A stretch of 12,912 nucleotides of DNA. Origin: a virus. The DNA is taken from positions 1 to 12,912 of the IMG/VR virus record IMGVR_UViG_3300032320_002275; one strand, 5' to 3'. The first letter of the stretch is position 1. Each line of letters starts with the position of its first letter. The position numbers and the translations under genes are program-made. Shown in pieces: positions 1 to 12,912 of this stretch. The notes under the pieces were generated by a model that saw only the letters and a program-made list of their open reading frames with translations, did not search any database and was not told where the DNA came from.

Positions 1-65
1 ATAAAAGCGAAATAGCAAAGATTAACGATAATTACGCACGAAAAAATATAAAATTTAGATTTTAA
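1..65 (+). CDS. Duplicate copy of the 3' end of the 12369..12854 gene (partial at window edge)
   Basis: Same sequence as 12790..12854; stop TAA at 63..65. Confidence 0.9.
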   Translation, partial: KSEIAKINDNYARKNIKFRF

Positions 66-123
66 ATAAAGAATTATGAAAAATAAAAGTACAATGTTAT
101 TAGTAGGTATTGGAGTAGCTTAT
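1..123. repeat. Terminal overlap, left copy (exact duplicate of 12790..12912); marks a circular or circularly permuted genome of 12,789 bp
   Basis: Base-by-base comparison shows 1..123 and 12790..12912 are identical. The junction lies inside the 12369..12854 ORF. Confidence 0.95.
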
Positions 124-372
124 TTATTATACCGATTATACAAAAAAAATTCAATGGCACCAGTTACTACAACTGCAAGTCCAAGTCCAACCCCAACAAT
201 ATTAAAAGCTGATACTGAACAAATTATATCAAATGGAGTGCCTAATCAATTTTTAGTAGATAAAGTAAGAGATGAAGCTATTTATTATGAAATACCTAAT
301 ACTTATCAAACTTTTTACGCAAGAGGAAATAATTTAGCTGGTGCAATATCAAAAGTACCATCTACTTGCTAA
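76..372 (+). CDS. N-terminally membrane-anchored protein of unknown function (putative virion membrane protein)
   Basis: 98-aa ATG ORF in the plus-strand block. It has one hydrophobic segment, MLLVGIGVAYLLYRLYKKN, followed by a Pro/Ser/Thr linker (TTTASPSPTPT). Confidence 0.6.
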   Translation: MKNKSTMLLVGIGVAYLLYRLYKKNSMAPVTTTASPSPTPTILKADTEQIISNGVPNQFLVDKVRDEAIYYEIPNTYQTFYARGNNLAGAISKVPSTC

Positions 373-398
373 CATTTTTAACCTTTAAATAAAATAAA

Positions 399-671
399 AT
401 GAGCAATTTTAATATAAAAGCTGGATATATAACTTATGATGTAAACTTTATAACTTATGATGCTAACGGATTTATAACAAGTAATTGCAATAGTATTACT
501 TTTATTAATTATGGTTCTAATGTAGTTACAATAGAAAGCGTTGTATTACAACAAAATCAAAGTTTTTCAATAGACGGAAACGCTGGCGAAATAATGAATA
601 AGCAATTTTTAGCAACCTTTACTGGTGCTGGAACAAATAATTTAGTTACAATAAAGAAAAACTATATCTAG
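399..671 (+). CDS. Small beta-rich protein immediately upstream of the fibre gene; possible vertex or spike-base component
   Basis: 90-aa ORF with alternating hydrophobic/polar beta-strand-like pattern (ITFINYGSNVVTIESVVL). Its stop TAG overlaps the GTG start of the fibre gene (TAGTG). The function is a guess from position only. Confidence 0.5.
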   Translation: MSNFNIKAGYITYDVNFITYDANGFITSNCNSITFINYGSNVVTIESVVLQQNQSFSIDGNAGEIMNKQFLATFTGAGTNNLVTIKKNYI

Positions 672-2692
672 TGAGTAATATTAGCGTAGATTTTGATGTG
701 TTAAACCAAAGGGGTAGCCCAGCTTGGTTTACTGATACTTTTGCCAATATACCTACTGCTGGCTTTGTAGGTCGTATGTTTATTTCAAAAGATACTTTTG
801 CGTTTTATAGAGATACTGGTAGTGGGTGGGATTTAATTGGTGGGCCAGGCATTGGTACATTAACTGGTAGTGGTGTAGTAGGGCAAGTATCATTTTTTAA
901 TGGTACCCAAGTTATTACTGGTAACAATAATTTATTTTGGGACAATGTTAATAGTAGGTTAGGAATTAATACAACGACGCCGGGTGCACCTTTAGATATT
1001 CACGCTACTGGTACTAATGCACAATTTAATGGTACTGGTACAAATAATGCTTATTTAGTATTTCAAAATGCTGGATCTAACAAATGGCGTATAGGCAATA
1101 ATTATAATGGTGGTGCTAATAGTTTTGATTTATATAATAATACAACTACAAGTACAATTTTTTCAGTTAATTCTAATGGTACATTTACATTATCAACAAG
1201 TTTATTTGCTAATTTTGGTATTGCTTTAAAAGATGTATCAGGCGTAAATAGTAATGGAAGTTTAGGTTTAGGTAGTACTGGTGCTGGTTTAAGTCTTGGA
1301 ATGAATGTTACTACTACAAATTATTTTGTATTGCCTACATCAGTAGGATATTCATATACTTTTCCAGCAACTACTGGTACAATAGCTTTAACAAGTAATT
1401 TAAGTAGTTACGTACCTTATACTGGTGTAACGCAAAGTGTAGATTTAGGTATTAATGATTTAAGTTCAAGATATTTAATTGCAAATGGTAATAGTACTGC
1501 TTCAGGAATATTAGCTTTAAAAATTAGCAATACTGTAACTGCTACAAGTGGTTATGGAACAATAGGTGCTTTATCAGGTCAACAATTTGCATTTGTATCT
1601 TATCTTGCAAGTAATTATGATAAAATTGCATATTTAAATTTAAGTGCATTATCTGATAGTACACCTAGAGTATTTACTTTACCAAATGCAACTGGCACCT
1701 TAGCTTTAACAAGTGATATTACATCTGCAATAAGTGGTACTACAAATAGGCTTGCAAAGTTTACCAGTACAAATGTTATTGGTAATAGTATGGTAAGTGA
1801 TGACGGCACTACTTTAACCAGTACTGGTGCTACAAGGTCAAATTTTTATATAAAAGCTGCAAACAATTCGGAATATGGGCAACTTGCATTCACAAATGGT
1901 ACAAACGCATTAAGCGGAGGTATAAGCTATAACAATAGCAGTCAGTATATGCAGTTTGAAACAAATACAAGTGAGTGGATGAGATTGAATAGTAATGGTA
2001 ATTTTTTAATAGGAACTACAACTGATAATGGTAATAAATTACAAGTAAATGGAACTGGATATTTTTCAGGTAATGTAGGAATTGGTGTAACTACTCCAAG
2101 TTATAAATTAGATGTCGCAGCACCTGGTAGTCCATCTGCAAGAGTTAGAAATAGCGATTTAGGTGGAACTGCAACTTTATTATTAGAAACTGCAAATAAC
2201 TTTAGCGGTACTTGTCAAACTTATGTTAAATGTATTGGTGCAGTAGGTAGTGGTGTTTCAGATTTAGCTTTTGGAACTGCGGGTGCAAGTGGTGACGCAA
2301 CTGCAGCTGAAAAAATGCGTATTAGTTCTGCTGGAGTAGTTACAATAACTAATTTAGGAACTGGTGCCGTTACATCAACGGCTGGAGTATTATCTGTTAC
2401 TTCTGATATGTATTTAAAAATAGAAGATGGATTTATAGATAATGCTTTAGAAAAAATATTAAAATTGACTCCTAGATATTTTTATTGGAAAAAAGAAAGT
2501 GGTCTACCTATTGATTTAAGACAATTAGGATTTTATGCTCAAGAAGTTAATCAAGTTTTAGGAGAAGAAGTATCAAATACACCAAAAAAAGAAAGTGATA
2601 AATGGGGTATTTATGATAGAGGTATAATTGCTATGCTAACAAAAGCTATCCAAGAATTAAACCAAAAATTAATAAATAATAATATAAATTAA
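671..2692 (+). CDS. Receptor-binding fibre or spike protein with C-terminal peptidase S74 intramolecular chaperone (autoproteolytic) domain
   Basis: 673-aa ORF with a GTG start. It is Gly/Thr/Asn/Ser-rich and has repeated fibre modules (RLGINTTTPGAPLDI and NVGIGVTTPSYKLDV; TFPATTGTIALTSNLSS and TLPNATGTLALTSDITS). The C-terminus SDMYLKIEDGFIDNALEKILKLTPRYFYWKK...LGFYAQEVNQVLGEEV...IIAMLTKAIQELNQKL matches the S74 pattern (SD.rLK ... w.w ... G.iAQEv ... l.al.i.aiqeL). The predicted cleavage Ser is about residue 578 (nt 2402). Confidence 0.85.
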   Translation: MSNISVDFDVLNQRGSPAWFTDTFANIPTAGFVGRMFISKDTFAFYRDTGSGWDLIGGPGIGTLTGSGVVGQVSFFNGTQVITGNNNLFWDNVNSRLGINTTTPGAPLDIHATGTNAQFNGTGTNNAYLVFQNAGSNKWRIGNNYNGGANSFDLYNNTTTSTIFSVNSNGTFTLSTSLFANFGIALKDVSGVNSNGSLGLGSTGAGLSLGMNVTTTNYFVLPTSVGYSYTFPATTGTIALTSNLSSYVPYTGVTQSVDLGINDLSSRYLIANGNSTASGILALKISNTVTATSGYGTIGALSGQQFAFVSYLASNYDKIAYLNLSALSDSTPRVFTLPNATGTLALTSDITSAISGTTNRLAKFTSTNVIGNSMVSDDGTTLTSTGATRSNFYIKAANNSEYGQLAFTNGTNALSGGISYNNSSQYMQFETNTSEWMRLNSNGNFLIGTTTDNGNKLQVNGTGYFSGNVGIGVTTPSYKLDVAAPGSPSARVRNSDLGGTATLLLETANNFSGTCQTYVKCIGAVGSGVSDLAFGTAGASGDATAAEKMRISSAGVVTITNLGTGAVTSTAGVLSVTSDMYLKIEDGFIDNALEKILKLTPRYFYWKKESGLPIDLRQLGFYAQEVNQVLGEEVSNTPKKESDKWGIYDRGIIAMLTKAIQELNQKLINNNIN

Positions 2693-2693
2693 T

Positions 2694-2954
2694 ATGAAAC
2701 AAATACAAGCAGTATCTATATGGTTTAACGGACAAGTGGTACAAGCTACTATATTTAATTTAACAAGTATTAATGATAATTTAATAGATAGTGCTACATT
2801 TTATTGGCAATTATTTGATGCTACAAATATACAAGTAGCACAAGGCAATCTAACTATGGGTAATTCTAATTATACAAATTATTCTAGTAGTTCAGATTCT
2901 AACGAATACGCTTACCAATGGGGTGCAACACAATTAAATTTAACCTTAGTTTAA
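2694..2954 (+). CDS. Hypothetical protein downstream of the fibre gene
   Basis: 86-aa ORF starting 2 nt after the fibre stop. No motif recognised. Confidence 0.5.
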   Translation: MKQIQAVSIWFNGQVVQATIFNLTSINDNLIDSATFYWQLFDATNIQVAQGNLTMGNSNYTNYSSSSDSNEYAYQWGATQLNLTLV

Positions 2955-2969
2955 TCAAAACAATATAAT

Positions 2970-3131
2970 ATGGAAAACCAAAAAGCCCTAGAATTAATTA
3001 AAGCCTTAATTGATGAATCAATTAAAAAAGGTGTATTACTAAACATTGATACGGCAGTACAAGTCGCAGAAGCGTTTAATACAATCGTAAAGGCAATTCA
3101 AAACAATGATTCTAATGAATCAGTAATTTAA
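2970..3131 (+). CDS. Small helical hypothetical protein (53 aa), not in the supplied ORF track
   Basis: Hand translation: MENQKALELIKALIDESIKKGVLLNIDTAVQVAEAFNTIVKAIQNNDSNESVI, stop TAA 3129..3131. It fills an otherwise non-coding gap in a tightly packed operon. Confidence 0.45.
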   Translation: MENQKALELIKALIDESIKKGVLLNIDTAVQVAEAFNTIVKAIQNNDSNESVI

Positions 3132-3136
3132 TTGAA

Positions 3137-3310
3137 ATGACTGAAAAAAATGGTATAAGTGGGTCGATTGCTAGTGTAGGTACTTACATATTAAGTATTA
3201 ACCAAATTAACGCATATATGTCGTTATTTTTGGGCTTACTCTCTGGTATTAGTTCCATTTATACCATTTTATATTTTTACAATTTAAACAAAAAGAAAAA
3301 TGAAAAATAA
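3137..3310 (+). CDS. Small TM protein (57 aa), holin or antiholin candidate, not in the ORF track
   Basis: Hand translation: MTEKNGISGSIASVGTYILSINQINAYMSLFLGLLSGISSIYTILYFYNLNKKKNEK. It has a hydrophobic core and a charged Lys-rich C-terminus, and lies upstream of the lysozyme gene. Confidence 0.5.
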   Translation: MTEKNGISGSIASVGTYILSINQINAYMSLFLGLLSGISSIYTILYFYNLNKKKNEK

Positions 3311-3461
3311 AAAAACTACAATATTTGGTTTATTAGCTGCAATTAGTGGCTATTTTGCTACGGCTGGTACTGGTAAAGTTCAAGTTATTGCTCAAGCAAT
3401 AGCTGGTATTAGTACATTTTTATTAGGTGGAGTGGCAGCTGATTCTAAAAAAGATAATTAA
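3300..3461 (+). CDS. Small two-TM protein (53 aa), holin candidate, not in the ORF track
   Basis: Hand translation: MKNKKTTIFGLLAAISGYFATAGTGKVQVIAQAIAGISTFLLGGVAADSKKDN. It has two hydrophobic stretches and a charged C-tail. It overlaps the previous ORF by 11 nt and ends 8 nt before the lysozyme start. Confidence 0.55.
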   Translation: MKNKKTTIFGLLAAISGYFATAGTGKVQVIAQAIAGISTFLLGGVAADSKKDN

Positions 3462-3469
3462 TTGACTAT

Positions 3470-4015
3470 ATGGCTAGTAATAAAAAAGTATTAGCTACTT
3501 TAGTTATATCAACAATAGTAATATATATGTTACGTAAACGAATAGCTACGGCTTTAAATAATACCCCTTTTGCTTTAGTTAGCGACAAGCTATTTAATGT
3601 AATAGCTAGTTTAGAGGGGTTTGTTGCTATACCTATTTGGGACTATATGCAATATAGCGTTGGTTACGGAAGTGGCTATAATTGGGACTTAAAAAGACCA
3701 GTTATTAAAACTGATGTAATTGACAAAGAAACGGCTAAAAAGTGGCTATTATTGGAAGCCCAAGATAAATACGATTTTGTAAAAAGTAAGGTTAAAGTAC
3801 CAGTTACCGATAACCAGTTATTAGCTATGGCTAGTTTTACTTATAATGTAGGCGAAAATGCTTTTGCTAATAGTACACTACTAAGATTGCTTAATGAGGG
3901 GGTTAGTAAGGACAAGGTAGCCCTACAATTTGATAGGTGGGTATATGCTGGGGGAAAGGTTAGTAGTGGCTTAAAAAAGCGTAGAATAGCTGAAAAGCAA
4001 TTATTTTTATCATAG
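3470..4015 (+). CDS. GH24 (T4-type) lysozyme/endolysin with N-terminal TM segment (signal-anchor-release or membrane-tethered form)
   Basis: The sequence SLEGFVAIPIWDYMQYSVGYGSGY gives Glu49 and Asp58 with the spacing of T4 lysozyme E11/D20, followed by the S/T-x-G-Y-G turn. Downstream are TDNQLLAMASFTYNVGENAF and GLKKRRIAEKQLF, both typical of GH24. The N-terminus KKVLATLVISTIVIYMLRKR is hydrophobic. Confidence 0.85.
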   Translation: MASNKKVLATLVISTIVIYMLRKRIATALNNTPFALVSDKLFNVIASLEGFVAIPIWDYMQYSVGYGSGYNWDLKRPVIKTDVIDKETAKKWLLLEAQDKYDFVKSKVKVPVTDNQLLAMASFTYNVGENAFANSTLLRLLNEGVSKDKVALQFDRWVYAGGKVSSGLKKRRIAEKQLFLS

Positions 4016-4044
4016 GGGGGTTTTTGCATAGTATAAAGGTAGAG

Positions 4045-4069
4045 GGGGTATTTTTATACCCCTTTTTTT
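4045..4069 (+). terminator. Intrinsic terminator hairpin at the convergent junction (end of the plus-strand block)
   Basis: GGGGTAT (4045..4051), loop TTTT, ATACCCC (4056..4062), then T7 (4063..4069). An A-run follows on the opposite strand. The hairpin overlaps the stop codon of the minus-strand ORF 4054..4245. Confidence 0.6.
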
Positions 4070-4245
4070 ATGTATATGCGTTCTACATATAATCTAGTGG
4101 TTTTTTCGTACAAATTAAAATACTCGGCATCTAGGGTTCTAGCAAAAGTTATAAAATTATTAATACTAGAAATATTATGATATTTACGAACTGGCTGGAT
4201 ATTATCCTTAAAAAATACAATAGCACTATACAACTTTTTAGCCAT
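4054..4245 (-). CDS. Hypothetical protein (63 aa), last gene of the minus-strand block
   Basis: ORF overlaps the upstream gene by 8 nt, which suggests coupled translation. No motif recognised. Confidence 0.5.
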   Translation of the reverse strand: MAKKLYSAIVFFKDNIQPVRKYHNISSINNFITFARTLDAEYFNLYEKTTRLYVERIYIKKGV

Positions 4246-4483
4246 TTTTAAGGGGTTTATCGTTTATAGCGAAGTATCTAACATTGTCTTGGGTAACTGC
4301 CCTAATTTTGCGTTTTACTACCAGCGGTGCAACTGCTCGTAATATAGTAAATCTTTGCCATTTTGTAATGTCTTGCAAATCTTTTAAACTTACTACTTTG
4401 CGTTCTAGAATGATAAAATAAATTTTTGTCTTATTTGTCATAGTGTTATATTTGTAGTGAAAAGTGTTAGAGTAGGCAATCAT
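4238..4483 (-). CDS. Small winged-helix-like DNA-binding protein (putative transcription regulator)
   Basis: 81-aa ORF. KIYFIILERKVVSLKDLQDITKWQRFTILRAVAPLVVKRKIRAV resembles a helix-turn-helix plus wing. An alternative start at Met15 (nt 4441) is possible. The CTGACTATAA motif lies 8 nt upstream of ATG 4483. Confidence 0.5.
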   Translation of the reverse strand: MIAYSNTFHYKYNTMTNKTKIYFIILERKVVSLKDLQDITKWQRFTILRAVAPLVVKRKIRAVTQDNVRYFAINDKPLKNG

Positions 4484-4491
4484 TGTCTATT

Positions 4492-4552
4492 TTATAGTCA
4501 GCGAGAAGTCAGCCTAAAAACTGGCTTCTCGTTTTTTTATGACTACAAACTA
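4492..4552 (-). promoter_or_regulatory. Bipartite upstream element, copy 1: TAGTTTG (4552..4546), 44 nt, then CTGACTATAA (4501..4492), then ATG 4483
   Basis: The same two words occur in the same order upstream of two other minus-strand genes. TAGTTTG resembles the Bacteroidota -7 box TAnnTTTG but is one base shorter. Confidence 0.35.
4502..4538 (+). terminator. Strong stem-loop plus T7, oriented as a plus-strand terminator inside the minus-strand block
   Basis: CGAGAAGTCAG (4502..4512) pairs with CTGGCTTCTCG (4521..4531): 11 bp with one G-T wobble and an 8-nt loop. T7 follows at 4532..4538. On the minus strand no U-run follows the stem. Confidence 0.5.
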
Positions 4553-4556
4553 ACCA

Positions 4557-4685
4557 TTAGTATCGTTTTATTTTTGAATTGTTAATTATATGCTCTATAA
4601 AAGCTATAAACATTATATACATAGCAAATAATATAGCTAGTGGCATTAATACAAATATTAAATAAAGTCTTTTTAAAATTGTCAT
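4557..4685 (-). CDS. Micro-ORF encoding a 42-aa single-TM peptide
   Basis: Hand translation: MTILKRLYLIFVLMPLAILFAMYIMFIAFIEHIINNSKIKRY. Its ATG overlaps the stop of the preceding micro-ORF (ATGA). Confidence 0.4.
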   Translation of the reverse strand: MTILKRLYLIFVLMPLAILFAMYIMFIAFIEHIINNSKIKRY

Positions 4686-4759
4686 ATATCCTTGTTTAAT
4701 AGTTTATAAAATAATTTTTTCGCTAATTCCCATATAATTATTGTTAATATAATTGTCAT
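4682..4759 (-). CDS. Micro-ORF encoding a 25-aa hydrophobic peptide
   Basis: Hand translation: MTIILTIIIWELAKKLFYKLLNKDI. Its ATG overlaps the TGA stop of the helicase gene (ATGA), and its own TGA overlaps the next ATG. Confidence 0.35.
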   Translation of the reverse strand: MTIILTIIIWELAKKLFYKLLNKDI

Positions 4760-5746
4760 AATATTTTATAATTGTTTTTATTATCTTTTACAATATAGTT
4801 TTTATTTATCCACAATTTAATTAAGTTTTTTGCATAGGCTTTACTGGTGGCAGTCCTTTCAATAATTTCGCTAGATATATCATTATAGGGCATTGGCATA
4901 GTAACTATTTGATGCAATAATCGTTTACTTTCAATTTCATCTAAGTCGGTAGCTTTTTTTCCACTATTCTTTGCTTTGTCGGTTTCAGTTTGCTCAAATA
5001 TGCCGTTAAAATTCATTAATGTAATAGGTTCAAAGTCGGAATCGCTACGCATAAAACGGCTGGATAGTACATAGGTATTTTTATCTTTGTCTTTTGTAAT
5101 ATCTAAAGTGGATTGAGCAAACCTATCACTAGCACTACCAATGTGTCCAGTAGTCATTAAATTGCTTTTTGACTGGTGCAAAACCGATATTAGCAATATA
5201 TTATAATGCTTAGTTATCTTTTTTAGCCAGCTAGTTAATAAACTACTTTCTTTCTCATCATTGTAATTTACCAATAAATCAAGCAATCCGTCCACAATTA
5301 GTATAGAGCAGTCTAAATTAAGCTCTAAATAGCGTTCAATCATTAATTTAATGGCGTTGCTGGAATCTTCGCGAACTTGAAATGCGTCAAAATAAGGTGG
5401 TAAATCGTTAATTTGAGCAAATCCTTTAATTTTATTAATAGTCCTATAAAAGTCGTAGTCGCTACTTTCGGTATCAATTAAACATACTTTAGCCCTATTT
5501 TGGGGGGTATGCAATTTCATTGTGAAAATATCATAGGTATTAAATACGCTACTAATCATAGCACATATAAAGGTTGATTTACCAGCTTTAGGGTAACCCC
5601 GAAAATATACAAAAGTTTTGGAGTGAGCCGATATGTTTACCTTGTATGGTAAAAATAATGTTTTCCTTGCTAGGTATATAGTTGGGGTTGTATTTGCGTT
5701 TTTCTAGTAAATCATCAATGTTTATCTTATAGTCAGTATTTTCCAC
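4756..5746 (-). CDS. RecA-fold replicative helicase (DnaB C-terminal / RepA, AAA_25-like) with C-terminal wHTH; reading frame interrupted by a +1 change at 5597..5600
   Basis: Walker A GYPKAGKST (5598..5572), Walker-B-like ILIVDGLLDL, ISVLHQSKS and GHIGSASDRFAQSTLDI are typical of DnaB-C/RepA helicases. The tracked ORF (4756..5559) starts downstream of the P-loop. The N-terminal 52 codons (GTG 5746 to stop at 5588) are in a different frame. Confidence 0.75.
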
Positions 5747-5777
5747 ATTTATAAATTTTCAAGTAAAGCACAAACTA
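5727..5777 (-). promoter_or_regulatory. Bipartite upstream element, copy 2: TAGTTTG (5777..5771), 34 nt, then CTGACTATAA (5736..5727), at the helicase 5' end
   Basis: Same words and order as copies 1 and 3. Here the second word lies just inside the GTG-5746 reading frame. Confidence 0.3.
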
Positions 5778-5812
5778 AAAATACAAATATTAGTATTAAA
5801 ACTGCTTGTCCG

Positions 5813-6082
5813 TTAATGGTTGTAAATAACCATTTCGCTATTTTTATCATTTTCAAATGTTTTAGTTTTTTCTTCAATTTTGTTTAAAAAAGTAATTGCT
5901 TGTTCTATGCTAATATCCATTAATACTAAATCGTATTCTTCTATATTATTAGATATTTTAGCTTTGTAAATTTCTAGTGCAAAATGCTCAAACTTACTTA
6001 GACCAGGTATAGGTACCACTAAGCGTTTAAAATTATCTTGTAATGGTACTACTGGATAGGCTGGTTGAGTTAAATTATTCAT
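5813..6082 (-). CDS. Hypothetical protein (89 aa)
   Basis: ORF in the minus-strand block with an 8-nt overlap with the upstream gene. No motif recognised. Confidence 0.5.
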   Translation of the reverse strand: MNNLTQPAYPVVPLQDNFKRLVVPIPGLSKFEHFALEIYKAKISNNIEEYDLVLMDISIEQAITFLNKIEEKTKTFENDKNSEMVIYNH

Positions 6083-6269
6083 TAGTAATAGGTTTTAATG
6101 GTTCTGCTTCGTAAATTTTGTAGTCGGGTTGCGTAGGCTTTACCTTATATTCATTTTTCCACATTGTATATAGTTTTCCTTCAATAGTAAAACTGATATA
6201 GGTTTTGCTATTTTTTGTGGTTTTGTCCCAAGCACCAATACTTGTTTTTTTTTCAGTTTCGTTTTGCAT
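6075..6269 (-). CDS. Hypothetical small protein (64 aa); faint resemblance to DUF736-type small beta proteins
   Basis: IGAWDKTTKNSKTYISFTIEGKLYTMWKNEYKVKPTQPDYKIY recalls the G.w.k....G..yls.kl....a.l..n......pdy.v pattern. This comes from memory only, so the assignment is weak. Confidence 0.45.
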   Translation of the reverse strand: MQNETEKKTSIGAWDKTTKNSKTYISFTIEGKLYTMWKNEYKVKPTQPDYKIYEAEPLKPITNE

Positions 6270-6316
6270 TTTTTTAAATTTTGAGTTTTTGCTAATAATA
6301 AAAAGTAATTCATAGG

Positions 6317-6463
6317 TTATTTAGTTAAATAGTCTATATGGCATTTTGCACTAGTTAAACTGCTATGCTCACTCATATCAATTTGAACAATATAAACTTT
6401 TGGTAATAAGTGGTCGTATAAAGTTTCAAAAATAACATAACCTAAATAATAAATTTTTTTCAT
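6317..6463 (-). CDS. Small hypothetical protein (48 aa), not in the ORF track
   Basis: Hand translation: MKKIYYLGYVIFETLYDHLLPKVYIVQIDMSEHSSLTSAKCHIDYLTK. It starts 1 nt after the stop of the 6465..6749 ORF. Confidence 0.4.
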   Translation of the reverse strand: MKKIYYLGYVIFETLYDHLLPKVYIVQIDMSEHSSLTSAKCHIDYLTK

Positions 6464-6464
6464 T

Positions 6465-6749
6465 TTATAAATTTTTTAAGTGTTGGTTAAGTGAGGATAT
6501 ATCTTTATCAAATTGCTCAATGCTATCATCAATAATATTAATAATTTCATTAGGCAAATGAAATGGTAACATATCATTAGTAATATGCACCATTTTAATT
6601 TCTGCGTCATCAGTTGCAGTAAATAAAATTGAAACATCTCGGTACTGGGTTAATTTAAAAATTTCTACCAGTTTTTCTTTTTTGCGTGCAATTTTTTGGA
6701 TTTCAAGCAATACGGCGTTGGTACTGCTCAACGATTTGAATTGAATCAT
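6465..6749 (-). CDS. Hypothetical protein (94 aa), first gene of the minus-strand block
   Basis: ORF begins 11 nt downstream of a CTGACTATAA motif. No domain recognised. Confidence 0.5.
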   Translation of the reverse strand: MIQFKSLSSTNAVLLEIQKIARKKEKLVEIFKLTQYRDVSILFTATDDAEIKMVHITNDMLPFHLPNEIINIIDDSIEQFDKDISSLNQHLKNL

Positions 6750-6760
6750 TTTTGTAAATT

Positions 6761-6815
6761 TTATAGTCAGTAAAATAGAATAACGATATAAAATAAAGGA
6801 TATTATATCAAACTA
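6761..6815 (-). promoter_or_regulatory. Bipartite upstream element, copy 3: TAGTTTG (6815..6809), 38 nt, then CTGACTATAA (6770..6761), then ATG 6749
   Basis: It shares 13 nt (ATTTTATAGTCAG on the plus strand) with copy 1 and 12 nt with copy 2. Confidence 0.35.
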
Positions 6816-6885
6816 CCAAAATAATTAATATAATATCTATTTTAAAGGTCAAAAGTGTTAAAATATATATGTTTTAGGGGTATTT

Positions 6886-6957
6886 CTGTTTTATTAGATT
6901 TCTTGTTGCGAGCTTATGCTCGGCAAAAGCAAATCTAATAAAAATAAAACAAGAAAA
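6886..6957. promoter_or_regulatory. Cluster of overlapping dyad symmetries in the divergent intergenic region (operator or origin candidate)
   Basis: TTTTATTAGATTT (6889..6901) is the reverse complement of AAATCTAATAAAA (6931..6943). TTTCTTGTT (6899..6907) is the reverse complement of AACAAGAAA (6948..6956). An inner mini-hairpin is CGAGC-TTAT-GCTCG (6909..6922). The two long pairs interleave rather than nest. Confidence 0.5.
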
Positions 6958-7002
6958 AGACATTTACCCGATTTTTTTTTCCACAAGCCTAAAAATTTAA
7001 CA

Positions 7003-7032
7003 TTTTAGGACGTTTTTAGGGCTATTTTAAGG
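7003..7032 (+). repeat. Three TTTTAGG / TTTTAAGG direct repeats at 11-bp phasing (iteron-like)
   Basis: TTTTAGG at 7003..7009 and 7014..7020, and TTTTAAGG at 7025..7032. There is one further direct copy at 6872..6878 and an inverted copy CCTAAAA at 6988..6994. A T9 run lies at 6972..6980. Confidence 0.45.
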
Positions 7033-7103
7033 TTTTGTAAACAAAAACAATAATATTTTGTTATTATAGTTTATTGTCTTAATTTTATGGCAATTAGATT
7101 TTT

Positions 7104-7529
7104 ATGAACAAAAGAAATTGGTGGTTACTTCCAGCAACAATTATTGGTTATTTAGTTTATAAAAAATATGTACTAGCAAAAACTGTGTCAGTTTTTTTTA
7201 AGACAATAGATTTTAGTAGTATGTCATTATTGTACCCAACTATTAACATAGTAGTACAAGTAAATAACCCAACCGATATTACGGCAACAATACAAAATAT
7301 TAAAGGAGATTTATATTTAAACAATACTTATATAGGTAATGTAATAGGAATAACGCCTACTACATTAGTAACTGGTAGTTCTATTTTAAGAATACCAGTA
7401 ACTTTATCTTATACTGGTGTAGCATCTTTAATAAAAGGTCTAAGCACAAAAGGAATTAATTTAAGATTTAACGGAAGTATAATGGTTGATTTAATAGTAT
7501 TGCCTTTAAATTTTGAGTATAATATATGA
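7104..7529 (+). CDS. N-terminally anchored protein with LEA_2 (LEA14 / NDR1-HIN1-like) beta-sandwich-like domain
   Basis: TM segment WWLLPATIIGYLVYKKY, then TINIVVQVNNPTDITATIQNIKGDLYLNNTYIGNV...GSSILRIPVTL. This matches the LEA_2 pattern (l.v.NPN.. i..i.g.l.l.g..ig ... g....v.vpv). First gene of the plus-strand block. Confidence 0.5.
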   Translation: MNKRNWWLLPATIIGYLVYKKYVLAKTVSVFFKTIDFSSMSLLYPTINIVVQVNNPTDITATIQNIKGDLYLNNTYIGNVIGITPTTLVTGSSILRIPVTLSYTGVASLIKGLSTKGINLRFNGSIMVDLIVLPLNFEYNI

Positions 7530-8503
7530 TTAGTAAAAATATGGTGCTACAAAAATTGGCACCTTATACCAATTTTAAAAAAGTATTAATTGAGGACCAA
7601 AATACTGGCGATATTATACAAGGTATTTTAGATAATCACGATAACTATCAAAGTGAATACGACAAGATTAGTGAAATGTTTATCGACGATAATGAAGTAG
7701 AAACGGCAAAAAATGTTTTTGAATTTTTAAAAGATAATGTTCCCTATTATGTTGAGCCTATTGAAAAACAAACTTTAAGAAGTCCTAGTGCTATTATAAG
7801 TATTAAACAAGGTGCCGACTGCAAAAGTTACGCCAGTTTTATTAACGGCATTATGAGTTCACTCAATAGAAAAGGAATATTTAAAGTACCACTAGCGTAT
7901 CGTTTTGCTAGTTATAGATATGATACAAGAGAACCCCAACACGTTTTTGCTGTATTATATCCTGGTACTAAAAATGAGGTATGGGTAGATCCCGTACTAA
8001 ATAAATTCGACCAAAGAAAAGAACCAGTATTTATAAAAGATAAAAAAATAAAAATGGCACTAATAGCTATGTCAGGCACATCAACACAAGGTACGGCAAC
8101 TTTACAAGAGATGCAAAATTACCGAGATAAATTAGTTAGTTTAAAAAACAAATATTTGAATAGTGGTTTTATTACGCCAGGAAGTCAAGAGGAAAACCAA
8201 TATATTATGGCGATTGATAAAGTAACAAAAGCTATTCAATTTGCAAGTATTAGCGGAGTTCCAAATGTTAATGGAATATTTGATAGTCCCGACGAAGGCG
8301 GTATAGATTGGGGTAATATATTTGGAAAACTTATTGATACTGGTGCAAGTTTAATACAAAGAAATAACCAGCCTAGTGGTGGTATGTTTTTTCCTACTAC
8401 GCAATCTACTATGCAACCTATTACAAATCAAGGTATTAATATTAATACATTATTATTAATAGGTGCTGGTGGTTTAGCTTTATATTTAATTCTTAGGAAA
8501 TAA
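7526..8503 (+). CDS. Transglutaminase-like (Cys-His-Asp) peptidase-fold protein with C-terminal TM tail
   Basis: KQGADCKSYASFINGIM (Cys99), PQHVFAVLY (His139) and EVWVDPVLN (Asp155) occur in the order and spacing of the transglutaminase-core triad. C-terminal anchor is LLLIGAGGLALYLILRK. ATGA overlap with the upstream gene. Confidence 0.6.
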   Translation: MISKNMVLQKLAPYTNFKKVLIEDQNTGDIIQGILDNHDNYQSEYDKISEMFIDDNEVETAKNVFEFLKDNVPYYVEPIEKQTLRSPSAIISIKQGADCKSYASFINGIMSSLNRKGIFKVPLAYRFASYRYDTREPQHVFAVLYPGTKNEVWVDPVLNKFDQRKEPVFIKDKKIKMALIAMSGTSTQGTATLQEMQNYRDKLVSLKNKYLNSGFITPGSQEENQYIMAIDKVTKAIQFASISGVPNVNGIFDSPDEGGIDWGNIFGKLIDTGASLIQRNNQPSGGMFFPTTQSTMQPITNQGININTLLLIGAGGLALYLILRK

Positions 8504-8505
8504 TA

Positions 8506-9096
8506 ATGGCATATTATACTAATAATATAGGTTATAAGCAAATGACAGCTATTGGAACCAAATTTATACCAATATATACTGGCGAACCAATATCATCAGT
8601 AATTGCTACTGCTGGTGCTACATTAATAGCGTCTTGGAATGACTGGTTTACACGCCCAGCGTTTGACGCAAATAGATTAATTAATAGTGTTAAACCACAA
8701 TTAGCTAATAGTGATGCAAGGCAAAGATTAGCTTTAGTAATAGCTACTTCTCAAAAAATTAGTCCTAGAGCTAGGGATGTAGGTGCAGAAAAACTTTTTT
8801 TATGGTATAAAAATACATACAACGAAGATTATAAAACATTATCATTAGAAGATAAAGAGTATTATAATAAGTTTTTACAAACTGCAATACAAACGCAAGC
8901 TGACGGAAATAATTTTTGGGCTAATTCTCAAAGAGCAATGTTTACAAATTCAGAATTAAATTATAATGCAAATCCAGTACAAGCAATTACAAATACTGCA
9001 AGCAATATATTTACTAATTTAACAAAAAGTCCAAGTAGTTTAATTTTATATACTGGCATTGGACTAGGTTTATATTTAATATTAAAAAATAAATAA
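8506..9096 (+). CDS. C-tail-anchored membrane protein, unknown function
   Basis: 196-aa ORF. C-terminus LILYTGIGLGLYLILKNK is nearly the same anchor as the preceding protein, and the two share the 12-nt string TTTATATTTAAT. Confidence 0.55.
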   Translation: MAYYTNNIGYKQMTAIGTKFIPIYTGEPISSVIATAGATLIASWNDWFTRPAFDANRLINSVKPQLANSDARQRLALVIATSQKISPRARDVGAEKLFLWYKNTYNEDYKTLSLEDKEYYNKFLQTAIQTQADGNNFWANSQRAMFTNSELNYNANPVQAITNTASNIFTNLTKSPSSLILYTGIGLGLYLILKNK

Positions 9097-9419
9097 TGAA
9101 AAAGGGAAATTTAATTTTTATCGTAGGGGGTTTAGGTTTATTGTATTATTTTTATATGCGTAAAAAAAATCCAATACCAGTTACTAAAACATTAGTACCA
9201 ACTCAAACAAATGTAGAACCATATGTTTACCCAGCTGGTTTATTAGAACTAGACTTTGTTGCAAATGGAGTAGAAACTGCTCAATTATATCAAGGGCAAT
9301 TAAGACCTATGACTGCTGCATATGCTCAAATGTATGCACCAAATCATTGGGCAAATACTAAAATAATACCAGATATTATATATAGAAGCATTCCAAGAGG
9401 TGCAGTATTAGACGTATAA
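9096..9419 (+). CDS. N-terminally anchored membrane protein, unknown function
   Basis: 107-aa ORF with TAATG overlap with the upstream gene. N-terminal TM is LIFIVGGLGLLYYFYMRKKN. Confidence 0.55.
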   Translation: MKKGNLIFIVGGLGLLYYFYMRKKNPIPVTKTLVPTQTNVEPYVYPAGLLELDFVANGVETAQLYQGQLRPMTAAYAQMYAPNHWANTKIIPDIIYRSIPRGAVLDV

Positions 9420-9429
9420 AATTAATAAA

Positions 9430-9966
9430 ATGACACAAGCACAAAAAACTGCAAAAGCAAAATTTAAGCAAGCTATTGCTTATAGACAAAAAACTGGCGT
9501 TTCTTTAAAAGAAGCGTTTGCACATATATACGGAAAAAAGAAAGTAGGTGCAGTTAAGAAAAAGTCGGCACCTAAAAAGAAAGTAGCTAAGAAAAAAGTA
9601 GCTAAAAAAGTTGTTAAGAAAAAATATAGTTTAAATAAAAAGAAAGATAAACTATACTCAGCTAAGAAACCAGGTAAGCGTTTAAGTAAAACTGGTAAAA
9701 CTTATTACGAAAATAGAGAAAATCGTAGCGACAAAGGAAAGTTATTAGGTATTGAAAGTAATTTAAGTATGAGTTTAATTAAAAGACTTGAAGATATTAA
9801 TAAAGAAATAGAAAAAAGGCAAGATGTTATTGCTAATGTAATACAAAATAAAACATATTTTGTAAATAAAAATGGCAAATCTTGGTATCCTAAATTTATG
9901 AAATTAGCAAAAGGTCATATTGCTGAATTGAAAAAACATAAAATAGAAATTAAAAAATTAGTTTAA
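9430..9966 (+). CDS. Highly basic Lys-rich, histone-H1-like protein (putative DNA-condensing core protein)
   Basis: The stretch GKKKVGAVKKKSAPKKKVAKKKVAKKVVKKKYSLNKKKDKLYSAKKPGKRLSKTGK has 26 Lys in 56 residues by my count. It includes KKVAK repeats encoded by 15-nt DNA repeats near 9577..9606. The C-terminal half looks helical. Confidence 0.65.
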   Translation: MTQAQKTAKAKFKQAIAYRQKTGVSLKEAFAHIYGKKKVGAVKKKSAPKKKVAKKKVAKKVVKKKYSLNKKKDKLYSAKKPGKRLSKTGKTYYENRENRSDKGKLLGIESNLSMSLIKRLEDINKEIEKRQDVIANVIQNKTYFVNKNGKSWYPKFMKLAKGHIAELKKHKIEIKKLV

Positions 9967-10006
9967 TAAAAATTTTCTCATAAACAATAATTAAAAATCA
10001 AACAAA

Positions 10007-10438
10007 ATGGCAAGAAGAAAAAGAGCAACTAAAAAAAGTAGCTACCGCAGACGCAGAATGTCAGGCGTAGGTGCTATGGGTAGTCAAATTACTGGTGCAT
10101 TATATACAATCGCTGGTGCCGTTGCTGCTGGGGCAGTAACAAAATTTTTACCCGCAACTATGAACGAAAAGCTAAAAGCAGCAGTTCCAGTAGTAGTAGG
10201 TATTATGTTACCTAAATATTTAAAAGGTAATGTCGGACAAGGTATCGGTGCTGGTATGGTAGCAACTGGTGGACTTAAATTAGTACAATCATTCGGCATT
10301 CTTAACGGAATCGGTGCTTATGGTGGTTATGCTGGTTATCAAGTACCGCAAGTAGCTGGTAATTATAACAACGCTGGTTTAATGGATACTAGCTATATGA
10401 CGCCGTCAATCGCTGGTATGGATGAGGGGAATTGTTAA
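10007..10438 (+). CDS. Membrane protein with Arg/Lys-rich N-terminal arm and Gly/Ala-rich TM segments
   Basis: MARRKRATKKSSYRRRRM has 10 basic residues out of 18. It is followed by GSQITGALYTIAGAVAAGAV, AAVPVVVGIMLP and GIGAGMVATGGL. Confidence 0.6.
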   Translation: MARRKRATKKSSYRRRRMSGVGAMGSQITGALYTIAGAVAAGAVTKFLPATMNEKLKAAVPVVVGIMLPKYLKGNVGQGIGAGMVATGGLKLVQSFGILNGIGAYGGYAGYQVPQVAGNYNNAGLMDTSYMTPSIAGMDEGNC

Positions 10439-10495
10439 TCTAACACTATTCACCTTTAAATAAAAATTTAATAAAAAAATAAAAATTAAAAAACA

Positions 10496-11155
10496 ATGGC
10501 AACTCAAATGGGACAAAGAATGGTCTTTGAAAATGCAAAAGCATTAGTAAGAGGTCTAGGTTATAGCGTAGATCAAGCAGTTCTAACGCAATCTTATTTA
10601 CGCAGTGAGGTAGCTTTAAGCACTTCTATTGCAAACTATCATTTACCAGTATTGGTTAATGATACCCAAAATGGTGCGGTTCGTGTAAACGAAAAGCGTC
10701 TAAATTTACAAGATATATTTGTGGCAAGTGAAATTTCAGTATTAATTGGAGTAGGTTCTGCAACAAGTACAAAAGCACCATTATATACTTACCCTAATGG
10801 TGTTATATTTACAAGTGCAACAGATGATGATTTATTGTCAATTTACAATGGCTCATTGAATTTAACAATTAACAATCAACAAGTATTACCAGCTTGGGAC
10901 GTATATCGTCATTACTACGTGCCACAAACACAAGGTGGTGTTGGTATTACTGCACAAACTATTTTCCCAGTAGATCAAAACGATGGTAGCGAAAATGGAT
11001 TTTATCCAGTAGAGCCAGGAATCGTATTTAATGGTGCTGCTAACATCAATTTCCAATTAACGGCAAATGGTGCACCAGCAACAATTTTAGCTAATAGTTT
11101 TATCTGCGTAATTCAAAGAGGTATCTTGTTACAAAACGTAACAACTGTTAAATAA
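10496..11155 (+). CDS. Candidate major capsid protein (beta-rich, 219 aa); fold not verified
   Basis: It has the longest A-rich leader in the plus block and is followed by a structured GC-rich terminator-like element. Composition is Asn/Gln/Thr/Val/Gly-rich with no TM and beta-strand-like periodicity. Assigned by context and composition only. Confidence 0.4.
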   Translation: MATQMGQRMVFENAKALVRGLGYSVDQAVLTQSYLRSEVALSTSIANYHLPVLVNDTQNGAVRVNEKRLNLQDIFVASEISVLIGVGSATSTKAPLYTYPNGVIFTSATDDDLLSIYNGSLNLTINNQQVLPAWDVYRHYYVPQTQGGVGITAQTIFPVDQNDGSENGFYPVEPGIVFNGAANINFQLTANGAPATILANSFICVIQRGILLQNVTTVK

Positions 11156-11165
11156 AAATATGCTT

Positions 11166-11216
11166 TGGCGAAGCTAAACGCTACTGCCAGCGGTCAGTAA
11201 CTACCGCTATTTTTTA
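11166..11216 (+). terminator. Tandem hairpins plus T-run after the candidate capsid gene (attenuator or terminator)
   Basis: Imperfect hairpin TGGCGAAGC...GCTACTGCCA (11166..11189). Then AGCGGT (11189..11194) pairs with ACCGCT (11203..11208), followed by ATTTTTT. The segment is locally GC-rich in an AT-rich genome. Confidence 0.45.
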
Positions 11217-11235
11217 AATTATTAAAAAAAAAGAT

Positions 11236-11643
11236 ATGCGTATTAAAAGATACCAAGCCGTAGAAATCAATGTACCAAGTGGAAGTACTTTAACTTTCTT
11301 TTTGTTCACTGACCAACCACAGCTAAGAAATGCTAAAATACAAGGTATTCAAGTATATACGCCTACTGCAATTACAAAAACGCCTTTAAGCGGTGCTACG
11401 CCAGTAACACTAGCAGATTTAAAGCAATCGTTTTTAACATTGTATCAAGGCGACTTACAAATTATATATAGACTACCATTGTTAGCGTTTAACAATATAC
11501 AAGATTTAACAAGTCCACACGTTTGGGAATTACCTGAAATGAACGATATTGATATAAGCTGGACTAAAAGTAGTGTTACAACGGCAGCTGCATTAGGCAC
11601 TACTGGTGTAACTTATAGTTTCGGAATTTATTATTATTTATAA
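11236..11643 (+). CDS. Second small beta-rich structural protein candidate (135 aa), possible minor or second capsid protein
   Basis: STLTFFLFTDQPQLRNAKIQGIQVYTP ... LQIIYRLPLLAF ... GVTYSFGIYYYL has beta-strand-rich character and no TM. It is adjacent to the 219-aa candidate. Confidence 0.35.
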   Translation: MRIKRYQAVEINVPSGSTLTFFLFTDQPQLRNAKIQGIQVYTPTAITKTPLSGATPVTLADLKQSFLTLYQGDLQIIYRLPLLAFNNIQDLTSPHVWELPEMNDIDISWTKSSVTTAAALGTTGVTYSFGIYYYL

Positions 11644-11655
11644 TATAGTTTTATT

Positions 11656-12369
11656 ATGGCAGTTCAAAAAGCAATGACTACTGGAACTAACGGAGTTATG
11701 GACTGGTTTGACAGAAATGCAACCAGTCCGTACTACTCGGTTTGTGAGATAATTAGTCCTACAAAAAAAGAGTTACTATTTTCTTGTAATGAGGATAGTG
11801 TAGATAATGCAAGGCGAATTTTAGAAGAAAATATATCTGCGTTTGAACAAAACGGAGTTAATACCTTATATGCTTTAATCTTGCACCCTAAAAAAGACAA
11901 GACGGGATATATTACTATGAATACGCCAAGCCACGCAATGTTAAAATTTCGACCAGCAGAACTAGAGGCACCAATCTACGGAGTAGGTGCATATACTGGT
12001 GGGGGTGGTAGCAATCGTTATGAAATGGAAAAAATAATGGAAAAGCTAAATTTATTGGAAAGTAAGTTAGCAGAAGCAGACTTAGAGGAATACGAAGAAA
12101 CGCCACAAAACCCAATAAACGCTATGCTTAGTAATATGGCTGCAAATCCACAAGTACAAGAGGCATTAATTAGCGGTTTAATTGGCGTAGTAGGTGGTTT
12201 TTTAAATAATGGCAAACAAATGCAAGGTGTAGCTGGAATAGGACAAGTTAATGAAGAAGCTATTTTAATATTGGATAGCTTAATAAAAAAAGGAGTTAGT
12301 TTAGAACATTTAAGAAAATTAGATGCTATGACTAATACCAAATTACAAAGTTTATTAATAATGTTATAA
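11656..12369 (+). CDS. Hypothetical protein with central acidic coiled-coil-like segment (scaffold or assembly candidate)
   Basis: 237-aa ORF containing YEMEKIMEKLNLLESKLAEADLEEYEE and a Gly-rich hydrophobic patch LISGLIGVVGGFL. No enzymatic motif recognised. Confidence 0.45.
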   Translation: MAVQKAMTTGTNGVMDWFDRNATSPYYSVCEIISPTKKELLFSCNEDSVDNARRILEENISAFEQNGVNTLYALILHPKKDKTGYITMNTPSHAMLKFRPAELEAPIYGVGAYTGGGGSNRYEMEKIMEKLNLLESKLAEADLEEYEETPQNPINAMLSNMAANPQVQEALISGLIGVVGGFLNNGKQMQGVAGIGQVNEEAILILDSLIKKGVSLEHLRKLDAMTNTKLQSLLIML

Positions 12370-12854
12370 TGGCAATAGATAAGCAAACGCAAAAACTTTT
12401 ATTATATACTGCAATAGGTGGTGGTGCGTATTTTTTAATACTAAAGCCACTTCTTATTAAATTAGGTGTATTAAAAAGTGCATTAGAATTAGAACAAGAT
12501 TATACTCAAAAAGTAAATATAGATGCGTATATTAATAATTCTATAAAAACACAAACGCCAACTAAATCAAAAGGGGAATGGCAGATTATAGCAGACCAAA
12601 TATATAACGATCTAAAGTTTAGCGGAATTGCCGACAATAAAAGTGATGCTGGCTATCAAGTAGCAAGAGTACAAAATGATGCCGATATTGCTACATTAAT
12701 ACAAGTTTTTGGAATGAGGCAAGAAAGTTTTTTTGGTATTAATATTGGGGGACTACAAAATTTACCACAATTTATTATAGGTAATTTAGATAAAAGCGAA
12801 ATAGCAAAGATTAACGATAATTACGCACGAAAAAATATAAAATTTAGATTTTAA
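12369..12854 (+). CDS. N-terminally anchored membrane protein, unknown function; spans the circular junction
   Basis: 161-aa ORF with TAATG overlap with the upstream gene. TM segment is LLLYTAIGGGAYFLILKPL. Its last 65 nt are the sequence at 1..65. Confidence 0.55.
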   Translation: MAIDKQTQKLLLYTAIGGGAYFLILKPLLIKLGVLKSALELEQDYTQKVNIDAYINNSIKTQTPTKSKGEWQIIADQIYNDLKFSGIADNKSDAGYQVARVQNDADIATLIQVFGMRQESFFGINIGGLQNLPQFIIGNLDKSEIAKINDNYARKNIKFRF

Positions 12855-12912
12855 ATAAAGAATTATGAAAAATAAAAGTACAATGTTATTAGTAGGTATT
12901 GGAGTAGCTTAT
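12790..12912. repeat. Terminal overlap, right copy (exact duplicate of 1..123)
   Basis: Identical 123-nt string at both window ends. Confidence 0.95.
12865..12912 (+). CDS. Duplicate copy of the 5' end of the 76..372 gene (partial at window edge)
   Basis: Identical to 76..123. Confidence 0.9.
   Translation, partial: MKNKSTMLLVGIGVAY

Follow-up and report, generated by a model that had tools for sequence, protein, structure and literature searches.

A lysine-rich modular protein and an arginine-arm protein as a candidate genome-holding pair in a family of tail-less, Bacteroidota-linked phages

Results

Two basic proteins encoded side by side

The DNA analysed here, IMG/VR virus record IMGVR_UViG_3300032320_002275 (positions 1 to 12,912, the whole stretch being called the window throughout), carries two neighbouring genes for proteins with strongly basic segments. 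We call them K178, a lysine-rich modular protein, and R143, a protein with an N-terminal arginine-rich arm. An initial annotation, made from the letters of the window, had read the pair as a histone H1-like protein next to an Arg-arm membrane protein within the structural block, and had proposed that the two condense the genome and tether it to a membrane independently of a packaging motor. Both open reading frames have the coordinates given there. The genes lie in the late block, directly upstream of c219 and c135, two putative capsid-related genes. Their features are the following.

9430 to 9966, plus strand: K178, Lys-rich modular protein of 178 amino acids (open reading frame; composition)
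9430 to 9534, plus strand: K178 N-domain, residues 1–35, two predicted helices (AlphaFold2 helices 3–22 and 26–34; predicted local distance difference test score, pLDDT, ∼90)
9535 to 9633, plus strand: K178 poly-Lys linker, residues 36–68, predicted disordered (pLDDT <50 at 38–68)
9634 to 9753, plus strand: K178 motif A mini-domain, about residues 69–108 (conserved columns)
9739 to 9963, plus strand: K178 variable C-terminal module, predicted helical hairpin (coiled coil; AlphaFold2 helices 104–139 and 153–177)
10007 to 10438, plus strand: R143, Arg-arm Gly/Ala-rich protein of 143 amino acids, net charge +12 (open reading frame)
10007 to 10060, plus strand: R143 Arg/Lys arm, residues 1–18 (10 basic residues)
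10061 to 10318, plus strand: R143 Gly/Ala-rich, weakly hydrophobic region with small-xxx-small patterns (hydropathy)

K178 is a modular protein with a poly-Lys linker

With 48 Lys and 6 Arg to 13 Asp/Glu, K178 has a net charge of +41, far outside the −8 to +11 spanned by the genome's other 24 proteins, and an isoelectric point of 10.4. Its densest 56-residue stretch (residues 35–90) holds 26 Lys, exactly as the initial annotation had counted, and the KKVAK repeat mentioned there is encoded by a 15-nucleotide tandem repeat present in 2.5 copies (9572–9609).

The comparison with histone H1 survives in part. Like linker histone H1 and chlamydial Hc2, K178 has a disordered Lys/Ala/Pro-rich stretch, and the composition is similar. 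The domains of those proteins are another matter. Pfam scans of K178 and 71 relatives found no H1/H5 winged-helix globular domain, and the N-domain modelled by AlphaFold2 is two-helical. The Hc2 profile (PF07382) gave no match in K178, and the one match among the 71 relatives (E = 5.6e-5) falls in a low-complexity region. K178 has instead a two-helix N-domain of its own, motif A and C-terminal modules that can be exchanged. The mean pLDDT of the AlphaFold2 model is 74, rising to 82–96 by 10-residue block in the C-terminal module, and motif A (consensus DKLYSAKKPGKRxSKxGKTYYExRxNRSDKGKLLGI) is predicted to form a short helix plus a β-hairpin.

The relatives of K178, which we call K-proteins, form a large and shuffled family: protein clusters hold 1,204 of them, with 657 representatives at the 50% identity level and sizes of 119–353 residues. 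The constant elements are the N-domain, whose columns are near-invariant, and the poly-Lys linkers, which keep their composition and differ in length and sequence. The parts downstream are shuffled. Motif A may be present, absent (as in many relatives) or repeated, and in two proteins, P0396 and P0486, it stands in tandem copies without the K-protein N-domain. In the place of the C-terminal module of K178, relatives carry TreK (PF24229), DUF7222 (PF23864) and others; further short modules include HKDTKSHNVNIRVVSG and ILNKIHKVKxxVxxLDEAQHKHM, and some K-proteins have globular domains inserted between duplicated linkers. For distant variants in viral contigs, a single-protein scan gave none and an alignment-based scan succeeded.

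Profile searches of the parts of K178 against Pfam and PDB sequences returned no matches, and Foldseek comparison of the model with PDB and BFVD gave generic helical hairpins only, with nothing at E ≤ 0.001. The K-protein family is undescribed, and Pfam has no model for its N-domain or for motif A. K178 is, in short, a modular 'beads-on-a-string' protein that is H1-like only in the composition of its linker, and it is unlike a plain condensing protein because of its shuffled modules and swappable C-terminal domains. The constant part of the K-proteins, judged from its sequence, probably binds DNA.

Motif A (KPGKRLSKNGEIYYEYRTN...) also forms the C-terminal end of a 727-residue LPD29-domain protein in a 56-kb viral contig (L099, IMGVR_UViG_3300033120_001125, 7940–10123). 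There the LPD29 protein adjoins a 1,280-residue SNF2 helicase, and a HerA-like ATPase is nearby.

The arm of R143 keeps its charge

R143 starts with MARRKRATKKSSYRRRRM, in which 10 of 18 residues are basic, and continues into a Gly/Ala-rich region; the initial annotation was right on both counts. All seven of its Arg lie in the arm, in a genome where most other proteins contain 0–4% Arg, and its net charge of +12 is just over the range of the other proteins (−8 to +11).

This charge is maintained as the sequence of the arm changes. Among the 120 R143 relatives listed, every full-length protein holds 10–11 basic residues in the arm, and the shorter entries are start-codon miscalls at Met18. We collected about 95 related loci (labelled L001 and so on) as a family set, and its distant members L094, L098 and L100 have the same gene order, with c219 43–52% and R143 35–42% identical. 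Their arms, of which MARRKKRVMKRKTSRRR and MARRKKRSAPSRRRKSRK are examples, have the same character, and in L094 and L100 the arm is kept though the N-terminus of the K-protein differs. Charge that persists while sequence drifts is usual where nucleic acid is bound electrostatically, and would fit such binding better than a sequence-specific signal. The Gly/Ala-rich region is also highly conserved (GGLKLVQSFG and other stretches), and among the full-length proteins of the family R143 as a whole ranks third in conservation, behind c219 (first) and c135 (second). R143 gave no matches in searches of Pfam, PHROG, NCBIfam and PDB sequences.

Its description as a multi-transmembrane protein is less secure. 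The best 19-residue Kyte–Doolittle window scores 1.38 and the best Wimley–White octanol energy is +0.9 kcal/mol, whereas the clear anchors of g57, tg325, g196, g107, lea141 and g161 have octanol energies of −5 to −11. R143 may nonetheless be embedded in a membrane through Gly/Ala-zipper helices. In the capsid proteins of circo-, noda- and anelloviruses an Arg-rich N-arm is attached to a jelly-roll domain. The body of R143, with conserved Lys between its hydrophobic segments, does not look like a β jelly roll, and its gene is separate from c219.

A twin-arginine translocation (Tat) signal peptide was considered for the arm and rejected. The S/T-R-R-x-F-L-K motif is missing from the arm, which reads ...YRRRRMSGVG, lacks hydrophobic residues at +2/+3 and has a further group of basic residues at the extreme N-terminus.

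The gene pair is conserved across a family of related genomes

Every one of the 76 loci with upstream DNA has a K-protein gene before R143, and R143 directly precedes c219 in all loci. Either 31–45 nucleotides separate the K-protein gene from R143, or about 316 nucleotides where an open reading frame of 92 residues stands between them. The conservation and adjacency that the initial annotation had proposed checking in related contigs are there wherever the sequence suffices: the two genes are adjacent or nearly so. The order K-protein, R143, c219, c135, g237 is preserved in about 95 genomes, including distant ones whose K-protein N-domain differs. Extended in both directions, the family order runs lea141, tg325, g196, (g107), K-protein, (92-residue open reading frame), R143, c219, c135, g237, ..., g90, fibre, g86, ..., lysozyme and replication module. 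Across the distant clade, median identities of full-length proteins are 77.7% for c219, 69.6% for c135, 61.7% for R143 and 46.8% for the helicase. Neighbouring K-protein and R143 genes mark a widespread uncultured family of tail-less Bacteroidota phages.

The intervening open reading frame (MYKISLYTKRKAKALN...SPGYYADQLLW) is conserved and occurs in about half of the relatives, for instance at 9688–9966 of L001. It is missing from the window and has no significant Pfam match.

No packaging ATPase is found

Two further features bear on how the genome is packaged.

1 to 123 and 12790 to 12912: exact terminal direct repeat of 123 bp (sequence identity)
4756 to 5746, minus strand: AAA_25 helicase, sole P-loop protein encoded in the genome and thereby its one candidate NTPase, reading frame broken at 5590

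Because the end of the window (12,912 bases) repeats its start exactly over 123 bp, the window represents a circular genome that is complete, with a length of about 12,789 bp. The sole Walker A motif of this complete genome is in the AAA_25 helicase gene, whose product matches AAA_25 and phage primase/helicases and whose position is in the replication module. P-loop motifs, sought in every open reading frame of at least 90 residues in the about 95 relatives, belong to helicase homologues only; seven further matches, in fibres and K-proteins, are due to chance. Neither a Walker A search nor Pfam, PHROG and NCBIfam found an FtsK/HerA (A32-like) packaging ATPase in the structural module. The initial annotation had seen no packaging ATPase; a canonical one was looked for in the genome and none was detected, and, as far as these sequence searches tell, none is encoded anywhere in the family.

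Comparison with known systems

The Arg arm had been called unusual in phages, which overstates the case. FLiP (Finnlakeviridae) is a phage of Flavobacterium with an internal membrane and without a packaging ATPase (PMC5894146). Its gp7 (ASQ41223.1; MF361639, 2703–2957; L101 in our set) is an 84-residue protein, annotated as structural, in which a 46-residue Arg-rich arm (net +27) is followed by one clear transmembrane helix, and the gp7 gene is immediately upstream of the FLiP major capsid gene. R143 likewise has an N-terminal Arg-rich arm before a hydrophobic segment (weak in R143) and is encoded directly upstream of the inferred capsid gene, c219. The late genes of FLiP also follow an order like that of the window—Arg-arm protein, capsid, small membrane/structural proteins, penton, spike, lytic enzyme, replication—and both FLiP and the window family have a Bacteroidota host link and no packaging ATPase.

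The two systems differ in other respects. Whereas gp7 has 84 residues and one clear transmembrane helix, R143 has 143 residues, an arm of 18 and long, weakly hydrophobic Gly/Ala-rich helices. FLiP has a single-stranded DNA (ssDNA) genome and a rolling-circle Rep, and the window family has an AAA_25 helicase and no Rep. BLASTP found no sequence similarity between R143 and gp7 (E = 5.4), and hhalign found no relation between c219 and the FLiP capsid protein. The resemblance between R143 and gp7 is best regarded, as an analogy, as functional and architectural and not as homology. The Arg-arm element is a variant of something already present, unstudied, in FLiP; a genome-binding role of gp7 appears to be undiscussed in those parts of the FLiP literature on which we draw.

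FLiP is not the only phage said to lack a motor. Yutin et al. 2018 (PMC5894146) describe the Odin and FLiP groups as non-tailed double jelly-roll phages without a packaging ATPase, and the window family is like them in being small, non-tailed and free of such an enzyme. In the assembly model that Kejzar et al. 2022 (PMC9719478) draw for PhiCjT23 and PM2-like phages, a membrane vesicle wraps the genome before capsid trimers attach. In the parts of the two papers used here, basic genome-binding proteins are not described. The capsid candidates of the window family have no detectable relation to the Odin-group and FLiP-group capsid proteins or to those of the PhiCjT23 and PM2-like phages.

Proteins of comparable charge are familiar from other icosahedral viruses. 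Adenovirus pre-Mu/pX, VII and V and φX174 J are small, highly basic proteins that accompany and neutralize the genome in an icosahedral shell. The pX protein joins an Arg-rich part to a hydrophobic Gly/Ala/Ile-rich tail, and J, at 26–37 residues, tethers ssDNA to the inner face of the capsid with no membrane context; adenovirus uses a packaging ATPase. None of these proteins is homologous to K178 or R143, and host, genome type and assembly route all differ.

The modular build of K178 has a different counterpart. Polyvalent proteins, which occur in phages and conjugative elements, are defined by LPD domains; Iyer et al. 2017 (PMC5512222) predict that those of phages are packaged together with the DNA and delivered along with it. 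Like K178, they are strings of small, variable modules encoded among virion genes. K178 has 3–4 small modules, and its link to polyvalent proteins consists of one short motif, motif A, common to one LPD29 protein; the K-proteins differ in being small, in having no recognized enzymatic or LPD domain and in their poly-Lys linkers.

c219, c135 and the late block

The genes that follow R143 have these features.

10496 to 11155, plus strand: c219, putative major capsid protein (conservation and gene position)
11189 to 11208, plus strand: terminator-like hairpin after c219 (consensus match only)
11236 to 11643, plus strand: c135, small β-rich protein, putative capsid or vertex protein (conservation; always after c219)

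An A-rich leader of its own precedes each of R143, c219 and c135, and with the hairpin behind c219 this arrangement would fit high expression of major structural proteins. The hairpin (AGCGGT...ACCGCT, then a T-run) lies in an 80-nucleotide gap and would fit attenuation after the putative major capsid gene.

Attempts to place these proteins by structure gave little. AlphaFold2 on c219, run with a shallow alignment (at least 84% identity), yielded a pLDDT of 32 and no usable fold, the c219 profile gave no matches among PDB sequences, and hhalign found no relation among c219, c135, g237, g90 and g86. Conservation and gene position make c219 the putative major capsid protein and c135 a putative capsid or vertex protein. 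The net charges of c219 and g237 are −4 and −8.

Many other late proteins (lea141, tg325, g196, g107, g161 and g98) have a single membrane anchor, as in internal-membrane phages, and the phages of the family probably contain a membrane. The late block begins with a LEA_2-domain protein that has an N-terminal anchor (7104–7529); the second protein (7526–8503; 325 residues) has a transglutaminase-like domain (DUF553) and a C-terminal anchor. In the structural module of a phage, LEA_2 and DUF553 are unusual.

The helicase gene is interrupted within Walker A

The helicase gene of the window is split into open reading frames of 52 and 267 residues. One extra base at 5590 causes the split, exactly where the Pro codon of Walker A (GLP^KAGKST) meets the Lys codon; the sequence there, UCG GGG UUA CCC U AAA, creates an in-frame UAA. 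The same 1-nucleotide gap (CCC U AAA; cassette UCGGGGUUACCCUAAA) is common to the window and three relatives (L005, L006 and L010). Six genomes from independent samples (L011, L012, L013, L016, L022 and L023) have a gap of 5 nucleotides at the same site (CCG UAACA AAA; cassette GGGUUGCCGUAACAAAA), again with an in-frame UAA. In the sister clade the helicase is intact.

Both halves of the gene are under strong purifying selection in the interrupted lineages. The ratio of nonsynonymous to synonymous substitution rates (dN/dS) is 0.035–0.09 for the C-terminal half and 0.03–0.23 for the short N-terminal half, where substitutions are few; dS reaches about 1.5, and the KAGKSTFICA codons are invariant. 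The downstream frame has no ATG, GTG or TTG start upstream of Walker A. Since the gap is kept, selection is strong and no start codon rescues the downstream frame, the sequence suggests programmed recoding.

The 1-nucleotide form consists of a G-rich stretch, a 3-nucleotide spacer, a slippery CCC and a stop codon, a layout that resembles the +1 frameshift cassette of prfB. The 5-nucleotide form, for which either a shift (+2 or −1) or a short hop would be needed, is unexplained. We found no significant RNA fold and no covariation around the gap. We regard this helicase gene, interrupted and yet selectively maintained, as a candidate for a new instance of programmed recoding in a phage of Bacteroidota.

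The genome and its relatives

The genome has a G+C content of about 30%, and its gene leaders are A-rich and lack a Shine–Dalgarno sequence. It is organized in two blocks, a late (morphogenesis) block on the plus strand and, on the minus strand, small proteins and the AAA_25 helicase. Besides the many small single-anchor proteins, the late block encodes a 673-residue fibre with a Peptidase_S74 chaperone domain and a lysozyme. Scans of the genome with Pfam, PHROG and NCBIfam found no terminase, portal or tail proteins, and for the structural-block proteins K178, R143, c219, c135 and g237 they gave nothing useful. Scans of the window for tRNA genes and Rfam families found none, and a scan of the intergenic regions for iterons or an origin gave nothing convincing.

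No isolate resembles this genome in the searches that we ran. The whole window showed no resemblance to any of 50,697 phage records in a nucleotide search, and tblastn of c219, R143, tg325 and the K178 constant region against phage isolates gave no matches. Public protein clusters, by contrast with the isolates, hold 213 relatives of R143 and 1,029 of c219, many from contigs of 12–13.7 kb, and two family contigs fall in metagenome bins labelled uncultured Bacteroidetes. The window belongs to an abundant, uncultured family of tail-less, Bacteroidota-linked phages with circular genomes of about 12.8 kb.

The replication module (small open reading frames plus helicase; 4054–6749 in the window, 3593–6727 in L001) is on the minus strand in the clade of the window and on the structural-gene strand in most relatives, an inversion of the module between clades. 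L001 itself, the 36,986-bp Joint Genome Institute (JGI) contig Ga0206640_1000217, is a concatemer of about three non-identical genome copies, one with a Phage_lysozyme gene and the next with a Glucosaminidase gene, and with fibres of 409 and 403 residues; either co-occurring strains were joined into a chimera during assembly, or the concatemer may be real.

The nearest database relatives of the window helicase, at 27–31% identity, are proteins of L092 and L093 (MT836458.1 and MT836017.1), human faecal records named 'Bacteriophage sp.'. We rejected both as phage relatives. They contain a large VirB4/TraG-like open reading frame, a primase, ParA and an integrase-like open reading frame, and look conjugative or mobilizable.

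Discussion

We propose, with some reserve, that R143 and K178 form a genome-holding pair for motor-free enclosure of the genome in a wrapped protein–DNA–lipid particle, a reading to which we give a little less than an even chance. R143 would be an abundant inner-virion protein whose arm binds genome phosphates electrostatically and whose Gly/Ala-rich helices lie in or on an internal membrane, beneath the capsid protein encoded by the adjacent gene. K178 would coat the DNA through its disordered poly-Lys linker, perhaps helped by the two-helix N-domain and motif A, and would enter the particle with the genome, bearing its swappable C-terminal module. Enclosure would then proceed by wrapping or co-assembly, with the lipid core made first and the capsid added later, and not by motor pumping. 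The sequences show the features themselves, their conservation and synteny, the modular build of K178 and the missing packaging ATPase; from these we infer DNA binding, virion location, membrane association and this assembly route. The K-protein and R143 probably hold the genome inside the particle, as gp7 may do in FLiP. The charge arithmetic is plausible. Some 200–600 copies of K178 would neutralize a third to all of the 25,578 phosphates, and about 1,200 R143 arms would neutralize about half of them.

Several points weigh against this proposal. The hydrophobic segments of R143 are below the usual thresholds for transmembrane segments. The hypervariable C-terminal modules and inserted domains of the K-proteins, together with the frequent lack of motif A, are unexpected for a pure condensing protein. 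The capsid role of c219 is drawn from conservation and gene position only, structure prediction having been unsuccessful, and the comparison with FLiP gp7, a protein whose own function is only annotated, is one of analogy, the sequences not being similar. The orientation of R143 is a further difficulty. In PRD1-type assembly, vesicles that bud off the cytoplasmic membrane turn their cytoplasmic face to the capsid. If R143 inserts by the positive-inside rule its arm is cytoplasmic, and a PRD1-style vesicle would turn that face towards the capsid; for the arm to face the DNA, the membrane would have to surround the genome with the cytoplasmic side turned inwards. Finally, virion location, DNA binding and expression are, for every member of the family, predictions from sequence, and the packaged genome may be single- or double-stranded DNA.

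The variable modules of the K-proteins lend themselves to two other accounts, both of which we think rather unlikely. In the first, the K-protein is a DNA-tethered cargo platform that delivers a swappable module into the next host at the earliest stage of infection. Anchored to the genome by its poly-Lys linker, by the N-domain and by motif A, it would be enclosed with the DNA without a motor and would enter the next host together with it; the delivered modules would be TreK, DUF7222, coiled coils and others.

In the second, K178 is not part of the virion core and acts inside the cell, for example in host nucleoid binding, takeover or transcription regulation. Its Lys-rich linker and N-domain would direct it to DNA in the infected cell, and an arms race with the host would account for the variability of its C-terminal modules. 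Such a role would suit the hypervariable modules, which include TreK, named after early terminal-repeat genes of Staphylococcus phage K, and are shuffled among 657 diverse representative proteins; it would also suit the failure of Pfam, PHROG and Foldseek to reveal any structural-protein signature. The position of the gene argues otherwise. It is always in the late block, upstream of R143 and on the structural-gene strand, even where the replication module is inverted, and a constant N-domain with poly-Lys fits a shared core role better than it fits purely variable effectors.

For R143, an unlikely alternative to genome holding is that the arm does not bind DNA and instead sets membrane topology, binds anionic lipid head groups or bridges the membrane to the acidic inner side of the capsid proteins. 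Basic residues beside hydrophobic segments are a normal topology signal, a PRD1-type vesicle would present its cytoplasmic face to the capsid, and the neighbouring gene products c219 and g237 are acidic. Yet 10 basic residues in 18, including seven Arg in an Arg-poor proteome, go far beyond what topology needs, and the mismatch with the Tat motif counts against an export signal of that type. Moreover, the arm of FLiP gp7 is even longer, in a phage that likewise has to enclose its DNA without a motor.

We consider it quite improbable that a motor packages the genome after all, be it the AAA_25 ATPase in an additional role or a translocase recruited from the host, such as FtsK, with the basic proteins only neutralizing charge or having an unrelated role. 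The genome does encode one RecA-like P-loop ATPase, and a host factor is possible. That ATPase, however, belongs to the replication module, inverted relative to the structural genes in the clade of the window, and it resembles AAA_25 and phage primase/helicases, not FtsK/HerA; non-tailed phage groups without an ATPase are, moreover, already recognized (PMC5894146). Strongly disfavoured is the idea that the basic features are functionless by-products of an AT-rich genome (Lys codons AAA/AAG and replication slippage), which the low G+C content and the tandem repeat in the Lys-rich stretch might suggest, since no other protein of the genome comes near the charge of K178, the R143 arm uses Arg codons that are costly in this genome, and both features are conserved in the family down to 35–42% identity.

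The question of how DNA is enclosed in small non-tailed phages that have no packaging ATPase has been posed for Odin-group and FLiP-group phages and for assembly of the PM2 type. K178 and R143 offer a concrete, testable candidate pair of genome-binding proteins, conserved in hundreds of environmental genomes, and the parallel with FLiP gp7 sits in an isolated phage that is amenable to experiments now. The module shuffling of the K-proteins suggests roles beyond charge neutralization. If the cargo account is true, the K-protein would be to non-tailed phages, in minimal form, what packaged polyvalent proteins are to tailed ones, and with the R143 arm it would make up a protein–DNA core in place of the packaging motor.

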